From Kipferlia bialata (taxonomy: Eukaryota), in the NCBI GenBank assembly GCA_003568945.1, contig BDIP01000033.1, positions 1-40,275 of the forward strand: a DNA stretch of 40,275 nucleotides. Reading direction: 5' to 3'. Both the position numbers and the translations under genes were made by a program. The stretch's first letter is position 1. The number at the start of each line of letters is the position of its first letter. Below are positions 3,183-40,091 of this stretch, piece by piece. The notes below the pieces were generated by a model that worked only from the letters and a program-made list of their open reading frames with translations, was not told the DNA's origin and searched no databases.

Positions 3183-6100
3183 CTGCTCCAAAGGACACAC
3201 AGGCCCGGATGGCATCACGGGCACGCCTAGAATGAGAACTCTACTAATCAACATGGTGAAATGTAATATATACATATAAGTAGATGTACACACATGCCCC
3301 GATGGCACGCCTTGGAGTGAGGGTAGAGTACACCACACTACACTATATGCTTTGAGTATACTATTAATACTATATGACTCTATTGTATGACTCACTTAAG
3401 TACCGCCATGTCTCTGTCGTAGTTGCTGGTGTCCCTGCTGCTGTTGATGAGGTGATCCACAAGCACCTCAATCTCGGCTGGGGTCAGGTGATGTACTCTT
3501 ATACTAACTTTGAGAATTTATAGCTCGAATATACTCGCTGACTATGCAATACCTGCCACATTGGCCAGCTTGAGCCATGCCGATGACATCAAGGGGGCGG
3601 CAACGGGTAGCAGCCTGGTATCAGTATGAGGTGTATATGTATGCAATATATGTACATAAATAGGATTGCTGTATATAGCTGGTTGGAGTCTGAGGGTGAG
3701 CATATGTATCGATACTACTGTATGTATTACACTACAATACCTTGGCTGGAACTGGTGTGTCTCCCTGACCTTGCCCACCAGGATGCAGAAGTGCTCCATA
3801 CACCGGTAACAGGCTAGTGTTAGTATACAAAGAATACAAGTATTCAATAGTATATATGGTATATAGTATGTTGATATACTTATCGGTATGCAGAAGTGCT
3901 CCATGCACCGGTAGCATGCTGGAATTAGATGATGATAAGTGAATATACCATATCACAAATGAGATATAATGCATCAGTATCATTGTATAAAACTCAACTT
4001 CCCATAGGAATGTCACTGCCTGGTTGCCACTTATACAGTTATACACATATATTCTTATATTGGATATGTATACAGGTACCAGTAAACATATGTACTTGTT
4101 ACCTTCCCCCAGGAATGTCACTGCCATATATATATAAATATATAAATACATACATATATATATATATATACATACATATATTTATATGTAATTGGATAGA
4201 CATTCACATAGAATCTATACATATTTATGTATATATGGCCTTTCTTACCTTCCCCTAGGAATGTCACTGCCTGGTTGCGCCTCTTGGGCTGCTTACAGGC
4301 ATGGACCTGGGTTAGATCATTATACAGATTATACAGAGATTTACAGAGTATGTAAAGGCATGGACCTAGGTTAGTACATATACTCAAAGGAAATGACTGG
4401 CACACACATAGAGAACAAGACATACAGTTAGTAGTAGAGAGTACGAACCTGGTTTGTGATCTCGACCATCTCTGCATAGACCCTCTCACTACTAAACCTG
4501 GGGTGGGGGACATAATATACATATCACAAGTACATACTACATATAAATACTATATGAATATGTAATATGGAAACCGCTGAACCTGGGGTGAGGGATCAGA
4601 GAGGTAGAGAGACCGTAATATATGCTATTATGTATCAGTTCCACTTACATTGCGTGCTGCAGACTGATGTCTGCTGATATCCTGGGCTGTACAGCTGACC
4701 CATGTACTATATATANNNNNNNNNNNNNNNNNNNNNNNNNNNNNNNNNNNNNNNNNNNNNNNNNNNNNNNCTATATATATTATATATATATACTTCTATC
4801 TATATATGTCTTACATTGCGTGCTGCAGACTTATATCTGCTGATATCCTGGGCTGCACAGCTGGTACAGCAGCAGCAGTGTTGAAGGCATGGGACACAAT
4901 GTCGGTGCGGCCTACATGTTAGGAATAGAGAAAGAGAGTGTTTAACATGGAATGTACCATAAGTATATATATAATATAGGATACATAATGTAGTGTTGAA
5001 GGCATGGGACACAATGTCGGTGCGGCCTGAGGGTAGGAGAGATTTGACTGTCAAGCAAGTGATATGGGAACGAAGAACCACATGAAAGAATACAGTATAC
5101 ATAGAAAACTCAACGGACACTCACCCAGTATCTGGTAGAGCCCTGCCATCTTGAGGCACATCCTGGCATAGAGGTTGTTGCGGTACGTCCTGGGGTTAGA
5201 TATATAGATAAATAAATCCCGTGGTACAATTATTCAATATAATATATATATAATTATATATTATATATAATTATATATATAGTATATTATTATATATATA
5301 TATTATTATATATATATATTATATATATATTATAGAGGTTGTTGCGGTACGTCCTGGTGTTAGATTAAGTAAACTCATGATAAAGTATCACTTCAACACA
5401 CTACATAAGGTGTATATACTATTAGTAATGTGTTGCGGTACGTCCTGGGGTTAGATTAATAGACAAATCCCATGGAACAATTATTCAATACCACACACAA
5501 TGTATAATAATTAGAATATTGCTTGCTACTATAAAGTTAACTAAAGTGTGTTATGAATATATAGTGAAACATGTATAATATATCCACGTACTTGTTGGCC
5601 AGAGTTGACAGTGCAGCACTGACGTCAATGGGTGCAGTCACCGGATGCTCCTGCTTGACAACAGTCTCTCCCTCGGTAGGGGCAGGGTCGTCCTCCTATA
5701 TGATGAGCACTCAGTATATATATATATACACACAATATATGCAAAGTATACACTATGAGGATGTAATAGTACTTCTTGATATATACAGTTCACAGACCTG
5801 GGCAGACACAGTAATATACATACACACTATTTGTATGTATCACTTCTATATATACAATATATATTATATACAGTGGCTAATTGTCCCACATACCTGAGCA
5901 GACACAATGTGGAGTCGGGACATGGCACCTGGGGTGAGAATACAGGTATATAACTATATATATGTATAAATGATACATACACACACACACACAAACAAAT
6001 GTATAATTATATATATACATGGAACCTGGGGTGATATCTAATTATGTTAATACACCGCTAATAGTAACACTAATCTAAATACATACAATACGCACTGTTG

Positions 6101-12343: not shown

Positions 12344-13144
12344 NNNNNNNNNNNNNNNNNNNNNNNNNNNNNNNNNNNNNNNNNNNNNNNNNNNNNNNNN
12401 NNNNNNNNNNNNNNNNNNNNNNNNNNNNNNNNNNNNNNNNNNNNNNNNNNNNNNNNNNNNNNNNNNNNNNNNNNNNNNNNNNNNNNNNNNNNNNNNNNNN
12501 NNNNNNNNNNNNNNNNNNNNNNNNNNNNNNNNNNNNNNNNNNNNNNNNNNNNNNNNNNNNNNNNNNNNNNNNNNNNNNNNNNNNNNNNNNNNNNNNNNNN
12601 NNNNNNNNNNNNNNNNNNNNNNNNNNNNNNNNNNNNNNNNNNNNNNNNNNNNNNNNNNNNNNNNNNNNNNNNNNNNNNNNNNNNNNNNNNNNNNNNNNNN
12701 NNNNNNNNNNNNNNNNNNNNNNNNNNNNNNNNNNNNNNNNNNNNNNNNNNNNNNNNNNNNNNNNNNNNNNNNNNNNNNNNNNNNNNNNNNNNNNNNNNNN
12801 NNNNNNNNNNNNNNNNNNNNNNNNNNNNNNNNNNNNNNNNNNNNNNNNNNNNNNNNNNNNNNNNNNNNNNNNNNNNNNNNNNNNNNNNNNNNNNNNNNNN
12901 NNNNNNNNNNNNNNNNNNNNNNNNNNNNNNNNNNNNNNNNNNNNNNNNNNNNNNNNNNNNNNNNNNNNNNNNNNNNNNNNNNNNNNNNNNNNNNNNNNNN
13001 NNNNNNNNNNNNNNNNNNNNNNNNNNNNNNNNNNNNNNNNNNNNNNNNNNNNNNNNNNNNNNNNNNNNNNNNNNNNNNNNNNNNNNNNNNNNNNNNNNNN
13101 NNNNNNNNNNNNNNNNNNNNNNNNNNNNNNNNNNNNNNNNNNNN
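12344..13144. other. Assembly gap (N run)
   Basis: 801 Ns. Confidence 1.
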
Positions 13145-30600: not shown

Positions 30601-33600
30601 TAGAGAGATACATCGAGAGAGAGAGAGATAGAGAAAGAGAGAGAGAGAGAGGGGGCCATGGAGGGGATCTGGGCTGAGAGAACTACTATATAACTATGTA
30701 TAGAGAGGGGGGGGAAGAGGGGGAGGCAGAGAAAGAGAAAGAGAGGGGGGGGGCCATCGAGGGGATCTGGGGTGAGAAGAAAGAATTATATACTTAGATA
30801 GAGAGATACATCGAGAAAGAGAGAAAGAGAGAGATAGAGTGCGAGAGAGGGGGCCATGGAGGGGATCTGGGGTGAGAGAACTACTAAATAACTATGTATA
30901 GCGAGAGGAAGAGAGAGTGGGGGGGCAGAGAGGGAGCCATGGAAGGGAACTGGGGTGAGAACACAAATAAGAACACAAATATTTCTCACTCATATATGAA
31001 TATGTTAGCTAATAGAGAGACAGAGTTGACTATATGGACATACCTCGTTGACCATCCTGATCAGGACATCGGTGGCAGTCTGTGCCTCTCCATCACCAGG
31101 CACCAATGTAGAGACACCTGCAGTACCCCCAGTTCCTCTAGTCCCTATAGTTCCTATTGTCCCCTTGGCCCCTGCAATTAGGGCTTCAAAAATATAGAGA
31201 TAGAGATAATATAGTAAAAATATTTAGGCAATGTATTATATTTTTGAAGCCCTACCAGCAATATCCCTGAACCCCTCATACACAGGGTGTGATGAGTCAC
31301 ACACGCAGAAGTGCACGTGCGATGGGTCGAGGTGGGTCAGTGCACAGAAGCATGCAGTGTATACCGCTATGGTGTCTAAGGGTGCATCGGCAGCCTCCTG
31401 ACTCAGAGAACCATCTACAGAGGACACACCATGGGTGGATGCGTATCTGTACGTGACACTGGAGAGTATGCTGCGGTAGAGGCTACCCCCAACAGCAGCG
31501 TTGGACTTGGATAGTGACTGGACCAGGGTGAGTAAGGGGGAGAGGGCAGTGAGGGTACTCTGCATGGCGTGTGTCAGTATGGGAGACTCTGTCTCAGACT
31601 CTGTCGATGTCTCAATGCACTGGGATATCATGCCCAGGGTCAGGATACATGCCTAGAGTAAGAATACTAATGTATATAAAAGTACAAAAGATAGTGGATA
31701 TATGACACTGGGATATCATGCCCAGGGTCAGGATGCAGGCCTAAAGGTAAGAGATACAGAGGCAATACAACATGTATATATTGTACTACAAACATCAGTC
31801 ACTTATCATGCCCAGGGTCAGGATGCAGGCCTGGTGGTTACTGAGAAGTATATTGAACTGTCATAATACAATTAATGTGGTAATAGTAATACACACCTTC
31901 TCCACTGCTGGATCCCTCTTTCTCTCTCCCTCTCTCTGTCTCTCTCTCTCTCTATATATATCTATATATACGTATACATACTATGCACTGAAATTACCTT
32001 CTCCACTGCCTCTGGACTCAGCAGGCACTGGATCTCCTTGGTCCCACCCTCCATATCAATGTCCACTGCCATTGTGCTCTGATCCTGGTACATAAGGATA
32101 GACACTCCTTAGATATAGACCATATAGACCATATGTATACCTAATAGACCACATATACCTAATGGACCATATATATTGAGTAAATATGACTATCATGCAT
32201 ACCATGGTGCTCTGTTCCATGGATGAGTCGTCAAGCTGCAGCTCCTTGGCCCTGGCAGCCTTCTCCTGGTACATAAGAATAACAGTTGTTATAGTATAAC
32301 AATATAGTATAGTAACACTAATGTAATAAAGCAATACGACATGAATATAGATCCAGCTCCTTGGCACGGGCAGCCTTCTCCTGATGTATAAGATAAGACA
32401 CCATATATAATTACTACTCTAGTACATGAAATACTAAGAACTATATATATATATAGACTGCTCTAGTTCCTTGGCACGTGCGGCCTTCTCCTGGTACATT
32501 AGGGCCATACCCCATAGGAATATATAGTAATATTATACTAAAGAGAATTGTACATGTTTCTCTGTCATATACACTGTACCTCTCTCTCTGTCAGCTCCAT
32601 GTGGACAAAAGATACACATGATCTAAACATATACATATGTATAATACTATCATTCAAAACCATACCGTTATGATATACATGTATATATACGCAATATACA
32701 CTATAGTTGACCTGTCTCTCTGTCATACATACTATACTATATATACTATATATACTATATATATATACTATACTATATACTATGTATATACTATACTATA
32801 TATACCATATATGTATACTGCACCTGTCTCTCTGTCAGTTCCATGTGGACACACGTGAAGGGATGGCATACTAGTACTACTACAACCACATAATTTATAT
32901 ATATAAATATGTAAGATATGAGTATTGGTTACCTCTCTCTCTGTCAGTTCCATGTGGACACATGTGCCACACGCAGACAGCCTAAGGTGAATATTATATA
33001 TTATATTATTATATATTATTTAATTATATATTATTATTATATATTATATTATTATACACGTGCCACAAGCAGACAGCCTAAGGTAAGTATGATGATATAG
33101 TCTAATAACAACAGAATACAATAGAGATGAACTGTTGTCATACACGATAAACACATGTGCCACACGCAGACAGCCTGAGGTGAATGGGATACAGGAACTA
33201 ACACTACAGTATAATAGAAGTCTGTTCATAGAAGAGAGTCTAATAACCACAGAATACGATGGAGTGAACTATTGTCATATACACCATAAACACAAACATA
33301 CCACAATAGGGAGAAGCTCCTGCTGACTGTGTGTGTTGACACAAGAGATGCCGTAAGAGACAACACCCTGGCCATCTCTCTCGTTGGCATCACTCTCTCT
33401 CCCTCTGCTACCCCTTCTCTCTCTCTCTCTCCTTGCCGACTGGCCCTGACAAAGTCAAACGCTGAGACGCTCTCTCCCTCACCCCCACTAGAGAGGGAGA
33501 GAGAGAGAGAGTCCAGCAGGGACAGGGGCAGGGAGTGCAGAACGTGGAGAATGGCTGGGGTAAGAACAGTGTATAGTCACTTCAGATAGATGTATATGAT

Positions 33601-33637
33601 GTACGATACATGGAGGAAGACAGGGAGTGCTGTTGAT

Positions 33638-33669
<32 letters not shown>

Positions 33670-34105
33670 GCAGAACGTGGAGAATGGCTGGGGTGAGGGT
33701 AGATGCCTGTCTCTACTATATTACATATAAATGTGGGTGGGTGGGTATACATGCCACACCTGGATTGGCCCAGACCTCCACCTTGGCACGTATACGCTCT
33801 CTCTCTCTATAAATATATACAAATATATTCTCTCCTTCTCTAAACGTAGTCATATATATGTGAATGACGTGTATATGTATGAATATACTACACTATATAT
33901 GCCATACCTGGGTTGGCCCAGACCTCAACCTTGGCCAGAGACTGCAGTCCAAACCTAGGGTTAAACTATATATGAACATGTAGTATTAAAAACAACTATA
34001 TGTGAAACCTATGTGTTAGCAAAGAGACACGATACATTCACTTTACGGCCAGTGGAGGAAGTATGATATGTATACATATATTGAAATACAATAGGTGGCT
34101 ATGCA

Positions 34106-34148
<43 letters not shown>

Positions 34149-35007
34149 GCATACCTTGCCACCAATGGGGCAATGCTGGATCCGATGGTAAACTATAGTA
34201 ACATTCAGTTATTATATATAATGTTTATTCAATACAACTACATGTGGGTACCTAGCGACCAATGGAGCAATGCTGGATCCGAATGGAGTGGATGGAGTCC
34301 CTGAAACCTCCCCTTCTCTCCCTTCAGCCTGGTATTAGCAAGTAAAATAGAATAAAGAAGAATGGACTGGATATATTATGAATGGACTGGATATGGACAC
34401 TGTAGCATCTCCAGCTGTCCCTGCAGGCTGACAATGAGTACTAATTGTGTATACAGCTGCATATATTGGGAATGTACTGCATATATTGTGAATGGACTGG
34501 CTGGGGACGACGGGACATCGCCATCTCTCCCTGCAGGCTGGTATTAGCACGTCGAATAGAAGAACTATGTATCAAAATTGCATCAGTGATAGAGTATAGA
34601 TAGCAATTATATACAATTTGAGCTTCTTGTATTCAGGTACATACACGCCAACAGTCCTAGGAGAGACACTCGTATCTCTGATCTATGTTACTATATGATA
34701 TATTAATACAACTAATTACTATATATGTACCTTTGCATTTAGATACAGACATGCCACCAGTCCAAGTAGAGTGGACAGGGAGAGAGAGGACTACTGACAC
34801 GTATACTATGTATTAATATATATATATATATAAATATCTAATTACATGTACCTTTCCATTGAGGTACAAGCATGCCACCAATCCTAGTAGAGTGGACAGG
34901 GAGAGAGAGGCAGAGGAGACAGACTGGGGGGCAGACCCAGACGCTAGAAGCCTGAAAGTGAGACAGGCTATACCTCCACATATATATATATATATATATA
35001 TAGATAG

Positions 35008-35044
<37 letters not shown>

Positions 35045-35952
35045 CAGAGGACACGGACTGGGGGGCAGACCCAGAGGCTAGGAGCCTACGGTTAGACGTA
35101 CAGTATACAGACAGTGTCCCAACATCTTGGTAGTCATATGGTCATATTTGAATACTCATATACTTGCATACACAAAAATACACTGTACCTGTAAGCTGCT
35201 GCGTATAGTGATATGACACTCATCTGGTCCAGTCTCACACCATATACACTAATATATTCATAGAACAATACTATGATTGTATTCAGTGAGTGAATACTAC
35301 CGTATACACTGTACCTGTATGCTGCTGCGTACAGTGATATGACACTCATCTGGTCCACACTTTCACCATACACAATAATACAGCTAGAACTATATATATA
35401 GAATATATACATATAGAACTGAATATTTGCAGTGAAAGAACACTTATGTATATACTGTATGTACCTATATGCTGCTGCGTATAGTGATATGACACTCATT
35501 TGGTCCATATCAGCACAGGGCCAGAACACAGACTGCACGGCCTATGCATAAGTCTTTTACTATATATATATATATATTACTATATATATACTGTATATAT
35601 ACTGTATTTGTATGTACGGAACATGTAGTGTTAGTATGAAACTGGAGCAAGGTCAGAAGACAGACTCGGCTCTAGTGTCAGAAATGATACAAGACAATGT
35701 AATATAGAGACAGGGGAGGACTACATATCCACTTGGTGAATGTGTAACTACTTTACCTCTACTAGTGGCCTAGCAACTGTCAGCAGCCTGAGTCCCTCAG
35801 TGTACTCTGCCGCATGGGGGCTCAGGGGGTCAGCAGCGTCAGCTAGAAGGTAAGGGACAATCGTAGTCAAAGTTTTGAATGGAAATCTTGGATTCTATGG
35901 GTGGTCAGTAGACCAGTATCAGATACGGCTCCTAACAGGTGAGACTGTTATG

Positions 35953-35987
<35 letters not shown>

Positions 35988-38900
35988 GATAAGCTCTGTG
36001 CCATAGGATCTGAAGATCGGGTATCTGAAGATACAGATGAATAGTACCAGACATAGTAGAAATCAGGTACATGCACAATATATATGCATACATATGTATA
36101 TATATAACTATACCTTCCTCTGTTGCTACTGGCATTGGCTGCCTTCTGATCAGAACAGACATGCCCTCTAGCCACGGGATGACTGGGATTTAGTATATAA
36201 ATAGACAAGTATATGACTATATATATATATATATATACTTAGCGAACTATGAGCAGACATGCCCTCTAGCCACGAGATGACTGGGAGTACGGGAGAGAGT
36301 ATAGAGACCTGTATATATATATATATATATACGGAGTGAAGTAAGATCAGACATGCCCTCTAGCCACGGGATGACTGGGATTTAGTATAGAAAGAGAGAC
36401 GTATATGGATATATAGACGGAGTGAAAAATGCTGACATGCCCTCTCGCCAGCGGATGACTGACAGTTAGTATACACAGTAGTATACATATACACATGCCA
36501 GGAATGTATACTGGGAGAATGGGTTGCATACCTGCATGGAGGTTATTATATAGATGCACTGTATATGGATATGCACACTATTGGTATACTGTATATACTA
36601 CCCTACCTGTCTGGATGTTGTTCTTGCCCCCTGACAGCACTAGGAGAGCACCCAACTCCATGAGGACCTATTGGGTGAGAGATAGAGGCATACATCGTCG
36701 TATTTACGATAATTAGCAATATATGAATGGGTATACCTCCTCTATGTACCCCTGTGTGTGGCAGTACCCAAGGTGTATATATATACTGATACATACAACA
36801 ATGAATATATACATACATACTCATACATATACACACCTCCTCCCTGTACCCCTGTGTGTGGCAGTACTCACTGTGACCAGACATCTGCTCTCGGGGGTCC
36901 TCGGGTAAGACAGACACATATATGATAAGACAGACACATGTACTAAATAAACACTAAGACATAGGGACAATATAGGGGAAAGGGTGACACATCCATAATA
37001 TACACAAATAATTACAATCATATATATATACATATTGAGAGAGAGAGAGAGAGGGAGTGGGAGAGTATATACACCTTTGTCACCACCCTGGCAGGAGGGC
37101 GAGAACATATATAGTAAAAATGTCCACTTGAATACATATATGGACAGAGAGAGAGAGAGAGAGAGAGAGAACATATACATGCCTTTGGAACTACTCTGGC
37201 AGGAGGCAGGTCCCCGACAATCATAGACAGACCGGCCTGGAATTAGGGGTGTAGAAGGAGAGAGAGAGATACATTGTGTATATATATATATACCAAAACA
37301 CCCTGATAACACATATGAGAGAAAGAGAGAACTTCAACGTGTCAGTAAGTGGTGCAGTGTGGGGCACACTCATCAGACTATATATATATATATATATATA
37401 ACAATAATACAATAATATATGTAATACATATCCCAGATTCCTCAGATGGCAATGATAGACTGAGTGACAAGGCTAGGCATGCTAGTAATGGTGCAGTGTG
37501 GGGGGCACACTCCTCAGACTATATATACATATATATACATATAATAATATATATATGTATATATAATATAAGATGTATAACATACCCCTGACTCCTCAGT
37601 TGGCAGGGATAGACTAAGTGACAGTGCTAGGCATGCCAACAGGGGTGCAGTGTGGGGGGCACACTCCTCAGACTATATATATATATATATATATATATAA
37701 TAATAATATATAAATATGTATGTATATATATAATAATACATATATAACATACCCCAGACTCCTCTGTATGGAGTGACAAGCTTAGGGATAAGGCTAGGCA
37801 TGCTAGTAATGGTGCAGTGTGGGGGGCACACTCCTCGGGCAGTCTGCCAGCCAGGAGGTCACCACCTTTAAGGTTCCTAAGGGTTAGTCTAAAATAGTCT
37901 GAAAGTGTATGTGATATATATAAATATATATATATACTCCTCGGGCAGTCTGCCAGCAAGGAGGTCACCTCATTTCAGATTCCTAAGAGTGTAAGAATCA
38001 TTAATATCTCTTATACCATATTCACAATAGCTACCTTGGCGACTTGAGCACTGCCTCCCGTGGGAGTATGAGAGGGTCGAGTAGAGCATATGTAATATAC
38101 TGTACACACAATATATATATATATACCTAGGTAACTTAAGTACTGCCTCCCTTGGCAGTATGACAGGGTCCAGTAGGGCATCCTCCCCCTTGACAGTGCG
38201 GATGGCAAGGTCTAAGGGGTAAGGAAGGATATATAGTACTTAATAAGTACATATATAGTATATATATATAGTACATATATATATGTGCGCAAATATATAT
38301 TTCAATTGAAGGGCATCCTCCCCCTTGACAGTGCGGATGGCTAGGGCTACAGTTAATGGTATATATAATATATATTATACATGTATATATAGCTAGGTCT
38401 AGAGAGTGAGAAAGGATGTATAGTATATATAATACATATACATATATATGCGTGTGTGTAAATATATATATATATATGTATTGAAGGGCATCCTCCCCCT
38501 TGACAGTGCGGATGGCTAGGTCTAGAGAGTAAGAGAGGATATATAGTATTTAATAAGTACAAATTATAGCATATATACGGTACATATATATATGTGCGCA
38601 AAAGTATATATATATAAGGGCATCCTCCCCCTTGACAGTGCGGATGGCAAGGTCTAGAGAGTGAGGGGAGATGGTATATGTATCAGGACATTCAGATGTG
38701 GAAAACTGTGAGTGGTTGGGTGTAGGTGCAACATATGCGTTCCCTTGACAGTGTGGGTGGTCAGAGGTATGATATCAATGGAATGTATCCATGTATACTG
38801 TCAATACCACCATATATACTGTGAACACTACTACTATTACTATACTGTGACCACATGGTCATACCTCTGAGTGCCCTGATGAGTATGACAGGGGGTATGT

Positions 38901-39331
38901 CCATGGCAGACACAAGGACCTGGGTAAGAGATATGAATAGATAACAATAATACATTATGGTATCAATATATATATATATATATTGATAAATATATACATA
39001 ATGTACGTAGTGTGACTGGGGGTATGTCCATGGAAGACACAAGGACCTGGGGTAAGAGATACATACGAATAGATACATGTACATGTATTTGAATAGATGT
39101 AAATGTATATATTTGTATATACTGGGTATGTCTATGACAGATTCTAGGGTCTGAAGGGTGAGAGAGTGGCATATACAACTGAATACTATGTTAAACAGCT
39201 ATTTACACATATCAATACACTATATAGATACATATATACTATAGAGATACATATATGTATACACTACCTTACACGCCTCGACCTCTTGGGTGAAGTCACA
39301 CTCTATAGTATCGCATCCTACGATACCCATA

Positions 39332-39374
<43 letters not shown>

Positions 39375-40091
39375 GGTGTGGGTGTGTGGGGGTGTACCTT
39401 GCACGCCTCGACCTCTTGGGTGAAGTCACCCGGTCCAGACAGGGCAGAGGTATTAGACAGACGGCCTAGAATGAGAAGTATACATCAATATATATATATA
39501 TATATATATACGTGTGTAGAGGGAGAGAGAGAATACTGGACCCGACAGGGCGGAGGTATTAGACAGACGGCCTAGAATGAGATACATATGCATAGAGAGA
39601 GAGAGAGTAGGACTAGAGTGAGACTAATACTATATAGACACTGGTCCAGACAGGGCAGAGAGAGAGAGTTGGAGAGACGGCCTGGGATCAATACTATACA
39701 GGCACACACACACTACTTCTATATACTTGTCAGCCAGTAGGGAGAGAAATACTATGGTATATATATATATACCATAATAGTGAATACTATATGATATGCC
39801 TGCGAATAGCAATGCCCTTGCCACATACTTGTCAGCCAGGAGGGAGGGCAGCGTGGTCACAAGCCTAGGGTGAATGACCCCAGAATCCAGGGTGGATAGA
39901 AACAAAGAGAGAGAAAGAGAGAACTATAGAGAGGAATGGGCGTGATATACGAGAAGAGAGGTGGGTCAGAATAGGACTCGAGTGTAAATTATTATACCTT
40001 CTGAACAGTGTTGGACTGCACTTGATGATCCTCCTGACATTCTGCTCGATGGAGAGGAGGTTGTTGGCATAGACACTCTCCTGGAGACCAC
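13302..40091 (-). CDS. 5' portion (62 exons, 5'-incomplete) of a very large multi-exon gene; helical-repeat-like hypothetical protein, possibly the N-terminal HEAT region of a PIKK
   Basis: Hand-spliced exons with matching phases and no in-frame stops, in transcript order: 39998-40091, 39800-39864, 39398-39465, 38865-38919, 38127-38211, 37753-37876, 37183-37236, 36837-36899, 36607-36667, 36114-36182, 35757-35842, 35465-35541, 34852-34951, 34252-34328, 33908-33954, 33302-33554, 32933-32981, 32203-32265, 31998-32084, 31256-31652, 31044-31171, 30495-30568, 29921-29998, 29689-29721, 29407-29500, 29054-29172, 28664-28718, 28325-28475, 28210-28269, 27768-27831, 27465-27547, 26894-26956, 26622-26689, 25828-25912, 25580-25643, 24892-25052, 24312-24406, 23618-23692, 23383-23432, 22830-22917, 22644-22690, 22187-22273, 21633-21747, 21245-21300, 20661-20764, 20406-20485, 19848-19905, 19337-19426, 18966-19029, 18562-18624, 17982-18076, 17559-17638, 16853-16929, 16497-16581, 16287-16366, 15918-16014, 15601-15657, 15307-15405, 14903-14967, 14040-14171, 13608-13709, 13302-13382. 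Exons are GC-balanced islands in AT-rich introns; synonymous variation in intronic copies independently confirms the frame. Product identity is inference. Confidence 0.85.
14140..14726 (-). repeat. Array of acceptor-side half-exon copies of exon 14040-14171
   Basis: CATGTCGACATCACCAGAGGT.G..GCACTG..GTTAG recurs five times between 14259 and 14726. Confidence 0.85.
23660..24147 (-). repeat. Array of five acceptor-side half-exon copies of exon 23618-23692, separated by (GA)n
   Basis: Unit GGATGGGRACCCAGTTGACATTGTTCT plus acceptor/branch motif repeated near 23775, 23840, 23955, 24040, 24115. Confidence 0.9.
31179..31254. mobile_element. 76-bp non-autonomous TIR element (hAT-like MITE / Introner) forming an 84-nt spliceosomal intron
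   Basis: Perfect 18-bp inverted repeats TAGGGCTTCAAAAATATA (31179-31196) and TATATTTTTGAAGCCCTA (31237-31254). Flanking 8-bp direct repeats CCTGCAAT (31171-31178) and CCAGCAAT (31255-31262), 7/8 identical. An 8-bp TSD and YAGGG termini are typical of the hAT superfamily. Confidence 0.8.
31256..31652 (-). CDS. Largest internal exon (397 nt) of the minus-strand gene
   Basis: Acceptor CTTACTCTAG; open frame ACILTLGMISQCIETS...YEGFRDIA; GT donor at 31254-31255; overlaps ORF 31236..31631. Confidence 0.9.
33302..33554 (-). CDS. Internal exon (253 nt) with SL/ER low-complexity patches
   Basis: Acceptor CTTACCCCAG; reads ILHVLHSLPLSLLDSLSLSLSSGGEGESVSAFDFVRASRQGEREREG...; GTATG donor. Confidence 0.85.
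33639..33669. repeat. (GATT)n tetranucleotide microsatellite
   Basis: About seven tandem GATT units in an intron. Confidence 0.9.
38175..38755 (-). repeat. Array of acceptor-side half-exon copies of exon 38127-38211
   Basis: AGGGCATCCTCCCCCTTGACAGTGCGGATGGC recurs near 38310, 38485, 38618 plus a remnant near 38742. Confidence 0.85.

Follow-up and report, generated by a model that had tools for sequence, protein, structure and literature searches.

A MITE-like element and its target duplication as the probable origin of one spliceosomal intron in Kipferlia bialata

The genome of the fornicate Kipferlia bialata holds 124,912 introns; whether they are ancestral or gained has been left open, with an ancestral origin favoured (PMC5874029). 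One intron in the window analysed here (a stretch of 40,275 nt of contig BDIP01000033.1) raises the question whether a transposable element has made an intron in this species. A first-pass annotation had described it as an intron created by a hAT-like MITE of the Introner kind, with terminal inverted repeats (TIRs), a duplicated target site (TSD) of 8 bp and exact removal by splicing. Our results indicate that this single intron was very probably made by a MITE-like element together with its target duplication, a reading that is backed by RNA. Gain of this kind is probably occasional, and membership of an Introner family is unlikely.

The intron and its removal from the transcript

The intron is 84 nt long, of the GT-AG type and in phase 1, and it lies on the minus strand at 31172..31255. 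It separates an upstream exon of 397 nt (31256..31652, minus strand, ending in ...DIA-G) from a downstream exon of 128 nt (31044..31171, minus strand), both given by a contig of sequencing run X2 and by the public gene model. All letters and coordinates were checked: the minus-strand order is ATTGCTGG at 31262-31255, the element at 31254-31179 and ATTGCAGG at 31178-31171. With the splice sites marked, exonic GAT ATTGCTG is followed by G, TAGGGCTTCAAAAATATA, 40 nt, TATATTTTTGAAGCCCTA and ATTGCAG, and then by exonic G GGCC. The 84 nt are made up of the 76-bp element and 8 nt, namely the final G of the first repeat and the first 7 nt of the second.

Four public runs were compared at 31000-31700, and contigs came from X1 and X2 only. 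One X2 contig (8309 nt, depth 13.5, exons without other letters) skips exactly the 84 nt 31172-31255, which are CT..AC on the plus strand (joint 31170>31255). We read this contig as spliced mRNA because its loose ends are the end of the preceding exon (32084-31998) and the start of the following exon (30568). In X1, a DNA run, the whole stretch is present in one piece and the 84-nt skip is absent. The public protein P0001 (KIPB_000304) contains DIAGAKG, a junction identical to that of the X2 contig; the frame across the joint reads DIA-G-AKG, while the unspliced form runs into a stop after GRASKI, i.e. six codons. The removal of 31172-31255 with this frame had been predicted by the first-pass annotation, as had the 31256/31171 junction for which it proposed an RNA check, and both predictions hold. 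Two in-frame AGs (31185-31184 and 31155-31154) were considered as acceptors and rejected; neither is preceded by a branch word at the spacing of native introns, and the joint that is seen is a different one. Our data support that the intron is real and excised exactly, at GT and AG and with the frame restored as in a spliceosomal intron, as seen in one contig of one sample. It should be kept in mind that the RNA support consists of a single contig and that X2 is RNA by a software guess, not by a recorded run type. Moreover, X1 and X2 stem from one sample, and the public gene model may have been built from these very data, so that these lines of evidence are not independent.

A skip of the same length would also be obtained from a young insertion allele, if the X2 contig stemmed from an empty allele or from DNA and not from splicing. 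The guessed RNA status of X2 leaves some room for this, as does the fact that contigs drop rare variants. However, the X2 contig is also without both adjacent introns, and X1 spans the stretch with no skip, which makes such an allele extremely improbable.

The element, its ends and its copies

The element occupies 31179..31254 and is a non-coding, MITE-like sequence of 76 bp with 25% G+C. On the minus strand it consists of a 5' TIR, TAGGGCTTCAAAAATATA (31237..31254), an AT-rich core of 40 nt (31197..31236) and a 3' TIR ending in CCCTA (31179..31196). The inverted repeat starts with TAGGG and is perfect over exactly 18 nt, the length given in the first-pass annotation; a short non-coding sequence with terminal inverted repeats is what is expected of a MITE. 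An 18-mer search allowing up to 3 mismatches finds 2 occurrences in the window, the two arms, versus 0.04 expected, and none of 100 shuffles reaches 2. Inverted repeats bordered by direct repeats were sought throughout the window; of the 8 candidates, 7 are AT-microsatellite sequence and the element is the sole exception. No terminal inverted repeat longer than 7 nt occurs in the 70 native introns of the gene, bar one TA run.

The element is flanked on the minus strand by two copies of a direct repeat, ATTGCTGG at 31255..31262 (7 nt exonic, the final G starting the intron) and ATTGCAGG at 31171..31178, which contributes the predicted branch A (31178), the AG of the acceptor (31173-31172) and the base with which the following exon begins. 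The 8-mers are identical at 7 of 8 letters. When repeat lengths of 2-12 were tried at the element boundary only 8 fitted, in agreement with the proposed 8-bp TSD; other lengths and shifted element ends were rejected. The single mismatch is synonymous (GCT/GCA, both Ala), again as annotated, and the T at 31257 in the first repeat is present also in the X2 contig, with 0 other letters. Between them, element (76 of 84 nt) and duplication (8 nt) fill the intron to both boundaries, as is characteristic of Introners.

It could be argued that the intron is older than the element, i.e. that the element landed inside an existing intron whose old sequence was lost, or that the direct repeat is the common AG|G exon context plus chance. 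Native junctions agree at 3-6 of 8 letters in the same register and 1 of the 70 reaches 7, so that the direct repeat alone is the weaker evidence; the gene is also intron-dense (71 introns) and often duplicates its splice regions. Against this, the 84 nt are fully accounted for, 7 of the 8 nt outside the element duplicating the exon end, and the boundary of the repeat family coincides exactly with the direct repeat's inner edge. We regard an old intron as very unlikely.

The boundary of the family is seen in the DNA run. At 31165-31330 there are 39 X1 contigs, of which 38 are not the locus. Summed depth comes to 381 beyond the limits of the element, 884 at 31171-76, 27,199 at 31177-82 and 44,237 at 31183-88, with a peak of 51,875, and it is 931 at 31231-54. 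This is a step of about 100-fold at the TAGGG end, to about 40,000 from 31179; a model in which the copies share a start at 31179 predicts about 39,900 per place and agrees best with the bin that follows. The ratio of peak to single-locus depth (117-136) would mean tens of copies or more, although depths added up in this way do not measure copy number, and the shared stretch is in part of low complexity. At least 4 records (5 and 6 of X1, 10 and 11 of X2) depart from the window sequence exactly at 31179, and 40-48 nt of the element end are found at 87-96% identity, within different flanks, in at least three long single-locus X1 contigs and in two X2 contigs. Taken together, these data support that the element is a multi-copy repeat whose common sequence stops sharply at TAGGG, which bears out the expectation that a search would find further copies of the TIR.

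What the copies have in common is largely one end. Among the matches listed, copies elsewhere agree with the element over 22-47 nt from one end before diverging; 31197-31225 of the core is common to other copies and 31226-31236 to one other contig only. The 5' arm is likewise covered by one other contig among those matches (depth 550), with the donor-making G alongside. They include no second copy from end to end and no other duplication, the loose ends being 30 merged letters, and many dispersed copies with a common terminus, as expected of a MITE, are seen for one end only. Three X1 contigs run 3-5 letters into the flank of the window itself (records 2 and 3; loose end 31174), with mismatches allowed. 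Within the 40 kb and the 70 other introns of the gene there is no second copy of the element, and blastn gave no degenerate copy in the window, its matches being low-complexity ones of 9-23 nt. The inverted repeat had no match in viral contigs, in metagenome contigs (one arm or both arms) or in prokaryote genomes.

Several features of these records are worth recording for their own sake. At least 4 X1 contigs mirror 31208-31216 past 31225, so that some copies look like long palindromes centred near 31221, and the longest palindromic loose end in X1 then reads TTGACCCAG, which resembles a branch word with acceptor. In X2, records 10 and 11 (31179-31225) show that the RNA-like run retains element ends of other copies; one X2 loose end reaches ...GCCCCTA about 77 nt from its start and resembles a second element end. 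Two X1 contigs, one of them apparently the contig that spans the locus, have T instead of A at position 31206, possibly a letter common in the family that was merged in during assembly.

To which superfamily does the element belong? MULE, P and Merlin elements make duplications of 8-9 bp. The four X1 contigs with mirrored sequence look like long-palindrome copies, which presumably recall MULE or foldback elements. The element could therefore come from one of these other cut-and-paste superfamilies, with the intron mechanism unchanged. A duplication of 8 fits at its boundary (7 of 8), though, while one of 9 does not (3 of 9), and the TAGGG ends agree with two described hAT groups, so we consider such an assignment unlikely. 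The descriptions of these groups give Ac/Ds ends as C/TAGGGATGAAA with an 8-bp duplication (PMC3260210) and hATm ends as TAGGGTG with a duplication of 8-9 bp (PMC6004678). The element looks hAT-type because its TAGGG ends and 8-bp duplication match such elements, and it is probably one of them, judging from five terminal letters and from the duplication at one copy (7/8). The hAT-like ends and duplication proposed in the first-pass annotation fit this assignment.

Splice signals at the border of element and target

In the native introns the branch word CTNAY lies 2-5 nt before the acceptor AG in 57/70 cases, and the most frequent spacing is 3 nt (26/70). A count that does not depend on the gene model shows this fused arrangement too, with 79 instances of CTNAY-N3-AG on the gene strand and 12 on the opposite strand. 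In the element intron the branch-like word CTAAT (31177..31181, minus strand) spans the end of the element and the direct repeat and stands 3 nt before AG, i.e. at the native mode, and the donor on the minus strand is GTAGGG, to which the 5' TIR supplies position +2 onward. CTAAT is found in 4 and the GTAGGG donor in 2 of the 70 native introns. The donor of the element intron outscores 18 and its acceptor 30 of these 70. The origin of the donor GT from the final G of the first TSD and the first T of the TIR, and of CTAAT from the TIR end and the start of the second TSD with AG inside the latter, had both been proposed previously and are confirmed. Our results support that the signals of the element match the native fused branch/acceptor rule. 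The claim that its CCCTA end fits this rule stands as far as native-like signals go; CCCTA gives only three letters of the branch word.

We suggest the following course of events. A 76-bp non-autonomous hAT-type element with TAGGG inverted ends likely entered a coding exon, duplicating 8 bp. The final G of the first duplicate, followed by TAGGG, would have given the donor, and the CTA of the element joined to the AT of the second duplicate the branch word, with AG at duplicate positions 6-7, 3 nt on. Removal of 76 + 1 + 7 nt would keep the reading frame intact. The branch A is predicted from the CTNAY consensus to be the first base of the duplicate. Most likely the original target was ATTGCAGG and the exon copy later underwent a silent A-to-T change. 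The mismatched letter is the one that serves as the A of the acceptor: a target carrying T would lack an AG here, and use of the AG that follows downstream breaks the frame, so the target probably had A. Native exons end in AG in 53/70 cases and in TG in 5/70.

The element does not bring the splice rule along with it, as branch A, acceptor AG and donor G are all derived from the target. Since the target has to give the donor G, the A-Y of the branch word and the AG, only targets of the form AYNNNAGG splice cleanly, and such targets make up 17 of the 6167 coding 8-mers of the host gene. The coding share of the K. bialata genome is 0.34 (PMC5874029). At this share, and with targets taken at random, 0.07-0.19 clean exonic introns are expected from 50-135 surviving copies. 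One such intron is thus plausible under random targeting, and many are not unless targets are preferred. The run-on of three contigs into the flank hints at a target preference. The predicted fold of the pre-mRNA poses an unexplained obstacle: its 18-bp stem (-28.1 kcal/mol, z -3.5) joins the intron ends and yet would cover donor and branch word.

The same numbers bear on whether the element belongs to a true Introner family that has made several introns across the genome, aided by a preference for targets with an AT start and an AGG end. Copies in tens or more would suit such a family. So would the three contigs running into the flank, as a shared target starting with AT would give, and the other contig with the same 5' arm that also carries the donor-making G. 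On the other hand, the expectation under random targets stays below one clean intron, two X2 contigs retain element sequence in possible RNA, and the window and the other introns of the gene hold one copy. An Introner family is recognised from a minimum of 4 similar introns that lie in unrelated genes, and the rows of the survey that uses this criterion list 0 families for K. bialata (PMC12130899). We therefore find it unlikely that the intron belongs to a family of this kind; the Introner label of the first-pass annotation is borne out in that a multi-copy element fills the intron, and not in family membership, with one intron known. Still, the survey could have overlooked a recently active hAT-type introner family in this fornicate, one in which CCCTA and the duplication rebuild the fused acceptor in several introns; we think this doubtful. 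The accompanying idea that target preference makes gains frequent, and that diverging cores hid the introns from all-against-all surveys, is as tentative. If the overlooked family were true, transposon-driven intron gain would be ongoing in one intron-rich fornicate whose introns have been argued to be ancestral. Our preferred reading is that the family probably makes introns occasionally rather than in bulk.

Related systems and the host gene

Ds is reportedly spliced as an intron, in work attributed to Giroux 1994 and Dennis 1988. The K. bialata element shares with maize Ac/Ds, as described for that system, TAGGG ends, an 8-bp duplication, non-autonomous copies and exonic insertion with removal by splicing, whereas only the first 5 letters of the inverted repeats agree and its 76 bp contrast with the about 400 bp of Ds1 (PMC3260210). 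The closest parallels are hAT introners with 8-bp duplications in which both splice sites are co-opted, described for Panicum virgatum (fam14), Styela clava (fam1) and Fusarium oxysporum f. sp. albedinis (fam2) in the rows of the survey (PMC12130899). Like the K. bialata element these are non-autonomous, have TIRs and target-derived splice sites and leave mRNA length unchanged; TA/TA termini are noted in the Fusarium row. They differ in being families of 6-12 introns, compared to one known intron in K. bialata, where moreover the branch word straddles element and target because the host keeps the branch-AG gap at 2-5 nt, and where the host is a fornicate with 0 families listed. Introners whose two splice sites come in whole or in part from the duplication have been reported elsewhere as well (PMC9860276). 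IE1 of Micromonas pusilla and similar MITE-like introners are likewise short, with inverted repeats, a target duplication and scarless removal, but in these accounts IE1 makes a 3-bp duplication, has its own donor and has given thousands of introns (PMC11282704, PMC9860276), while neither site is complete in the K. bialata element, which depends on a rare target.

Fused branch/acceptor introns are described in diplomonads and Trichomonas. The introns of Giardia, Spironucleus and Trichomonas resemble ours in a short, near-fixed branch-AG gap and in intron pairing that joins the ends; the spacing is looser in K. bialata, and theirs are not described as transposon-derived in passages of that study (PMC6679479). 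The survey rows give 0 introner families also for 14 entries covering Aduncisulcus, Carpediemonas, Giardia, Monocercomonoides and Trichomonas (PMC12130899). Titles and abstract starts outside subscription journals contained no transposon-derived intron in Kipferlia or metamonads. Single transposon-derived introns are described in many eukaryotes (PMC11282704, PMC3296678), so the mechanism class is already known, and one intron does not account for the intron richness of the genome. The value of the locus lies in the lineage and in an explicit target rule. It is RNA-supported evidence that a transposon was the likely source of at least one K. bialata intron, in a group whose entries in the largest survey (K. 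bialata and 14 further metamonad rows) show no introners, and it gives a testable rule: in a host with fused branch/acceptor, clean splicing of a TAGGG element that makes an 8-bp duplication is limited to AYNNNAGG targets.

The host gene KIPB_000304 (197..32274, minus strand) is a partial public model of 72 exons and 2058 aa with no family assigned. The upstream exon matches P0001 (2058 aa, 100% identical, hypothetical protein KIPB_000304), a protein that maps letter for letter onto 72 exons from 32274 to 197, with 71 introns. This model supersedes our 54 predicted exons, for which the acceptor search was built on the motif and hence circular. No ortholog of the upstream exon was found among 1.84 billion representatives, and no homolog of the gene among longer proteins. 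Neither P0001 nor 16 of the exons gave a Pfam family, and no solved structure matches the host protein. P0002 was dropped as an unrelated repeat protein, and an atlas search of the host protein leads weakly to helical-repeat proteins.

Near-copies of the flanking exon ends, with splice site, are present at 59 of the 71 host introns (197-32274, minus strand). There are 59 copies of exon ends, 55 of them followed by GT, and 75 copies of exon starts, 71 of them after AG. The first-pass annotation had remarked that the element intron, unlike its neighbours, has no half-exon copies. Both neighbours do have them (1+2 and 0+3), and these decoys are skipped in the transcript, but the absence is not diagnostic: 11 of the 70 native introns are also without copies, as are 8 of the 16 under 200 nt, and we do not take it to indicate a young intron. 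Duplication of splice regions on this scale looks odder than the transposon intron and poses the question how the correct sites are chosen.

Blocks resembling open exons persist 5' of the model start (32275-40275, minus strand), and the X2 contig reaches 638 nt before 31654, beyond what two modelled exons give. The gene model is probably partial, without some 5' exons, and a GC donor near 39799 may be used. Two N runs (assembly gaps, 12344-13143 and 4716-4770) lie inside host introns, and the public protein maps across both.
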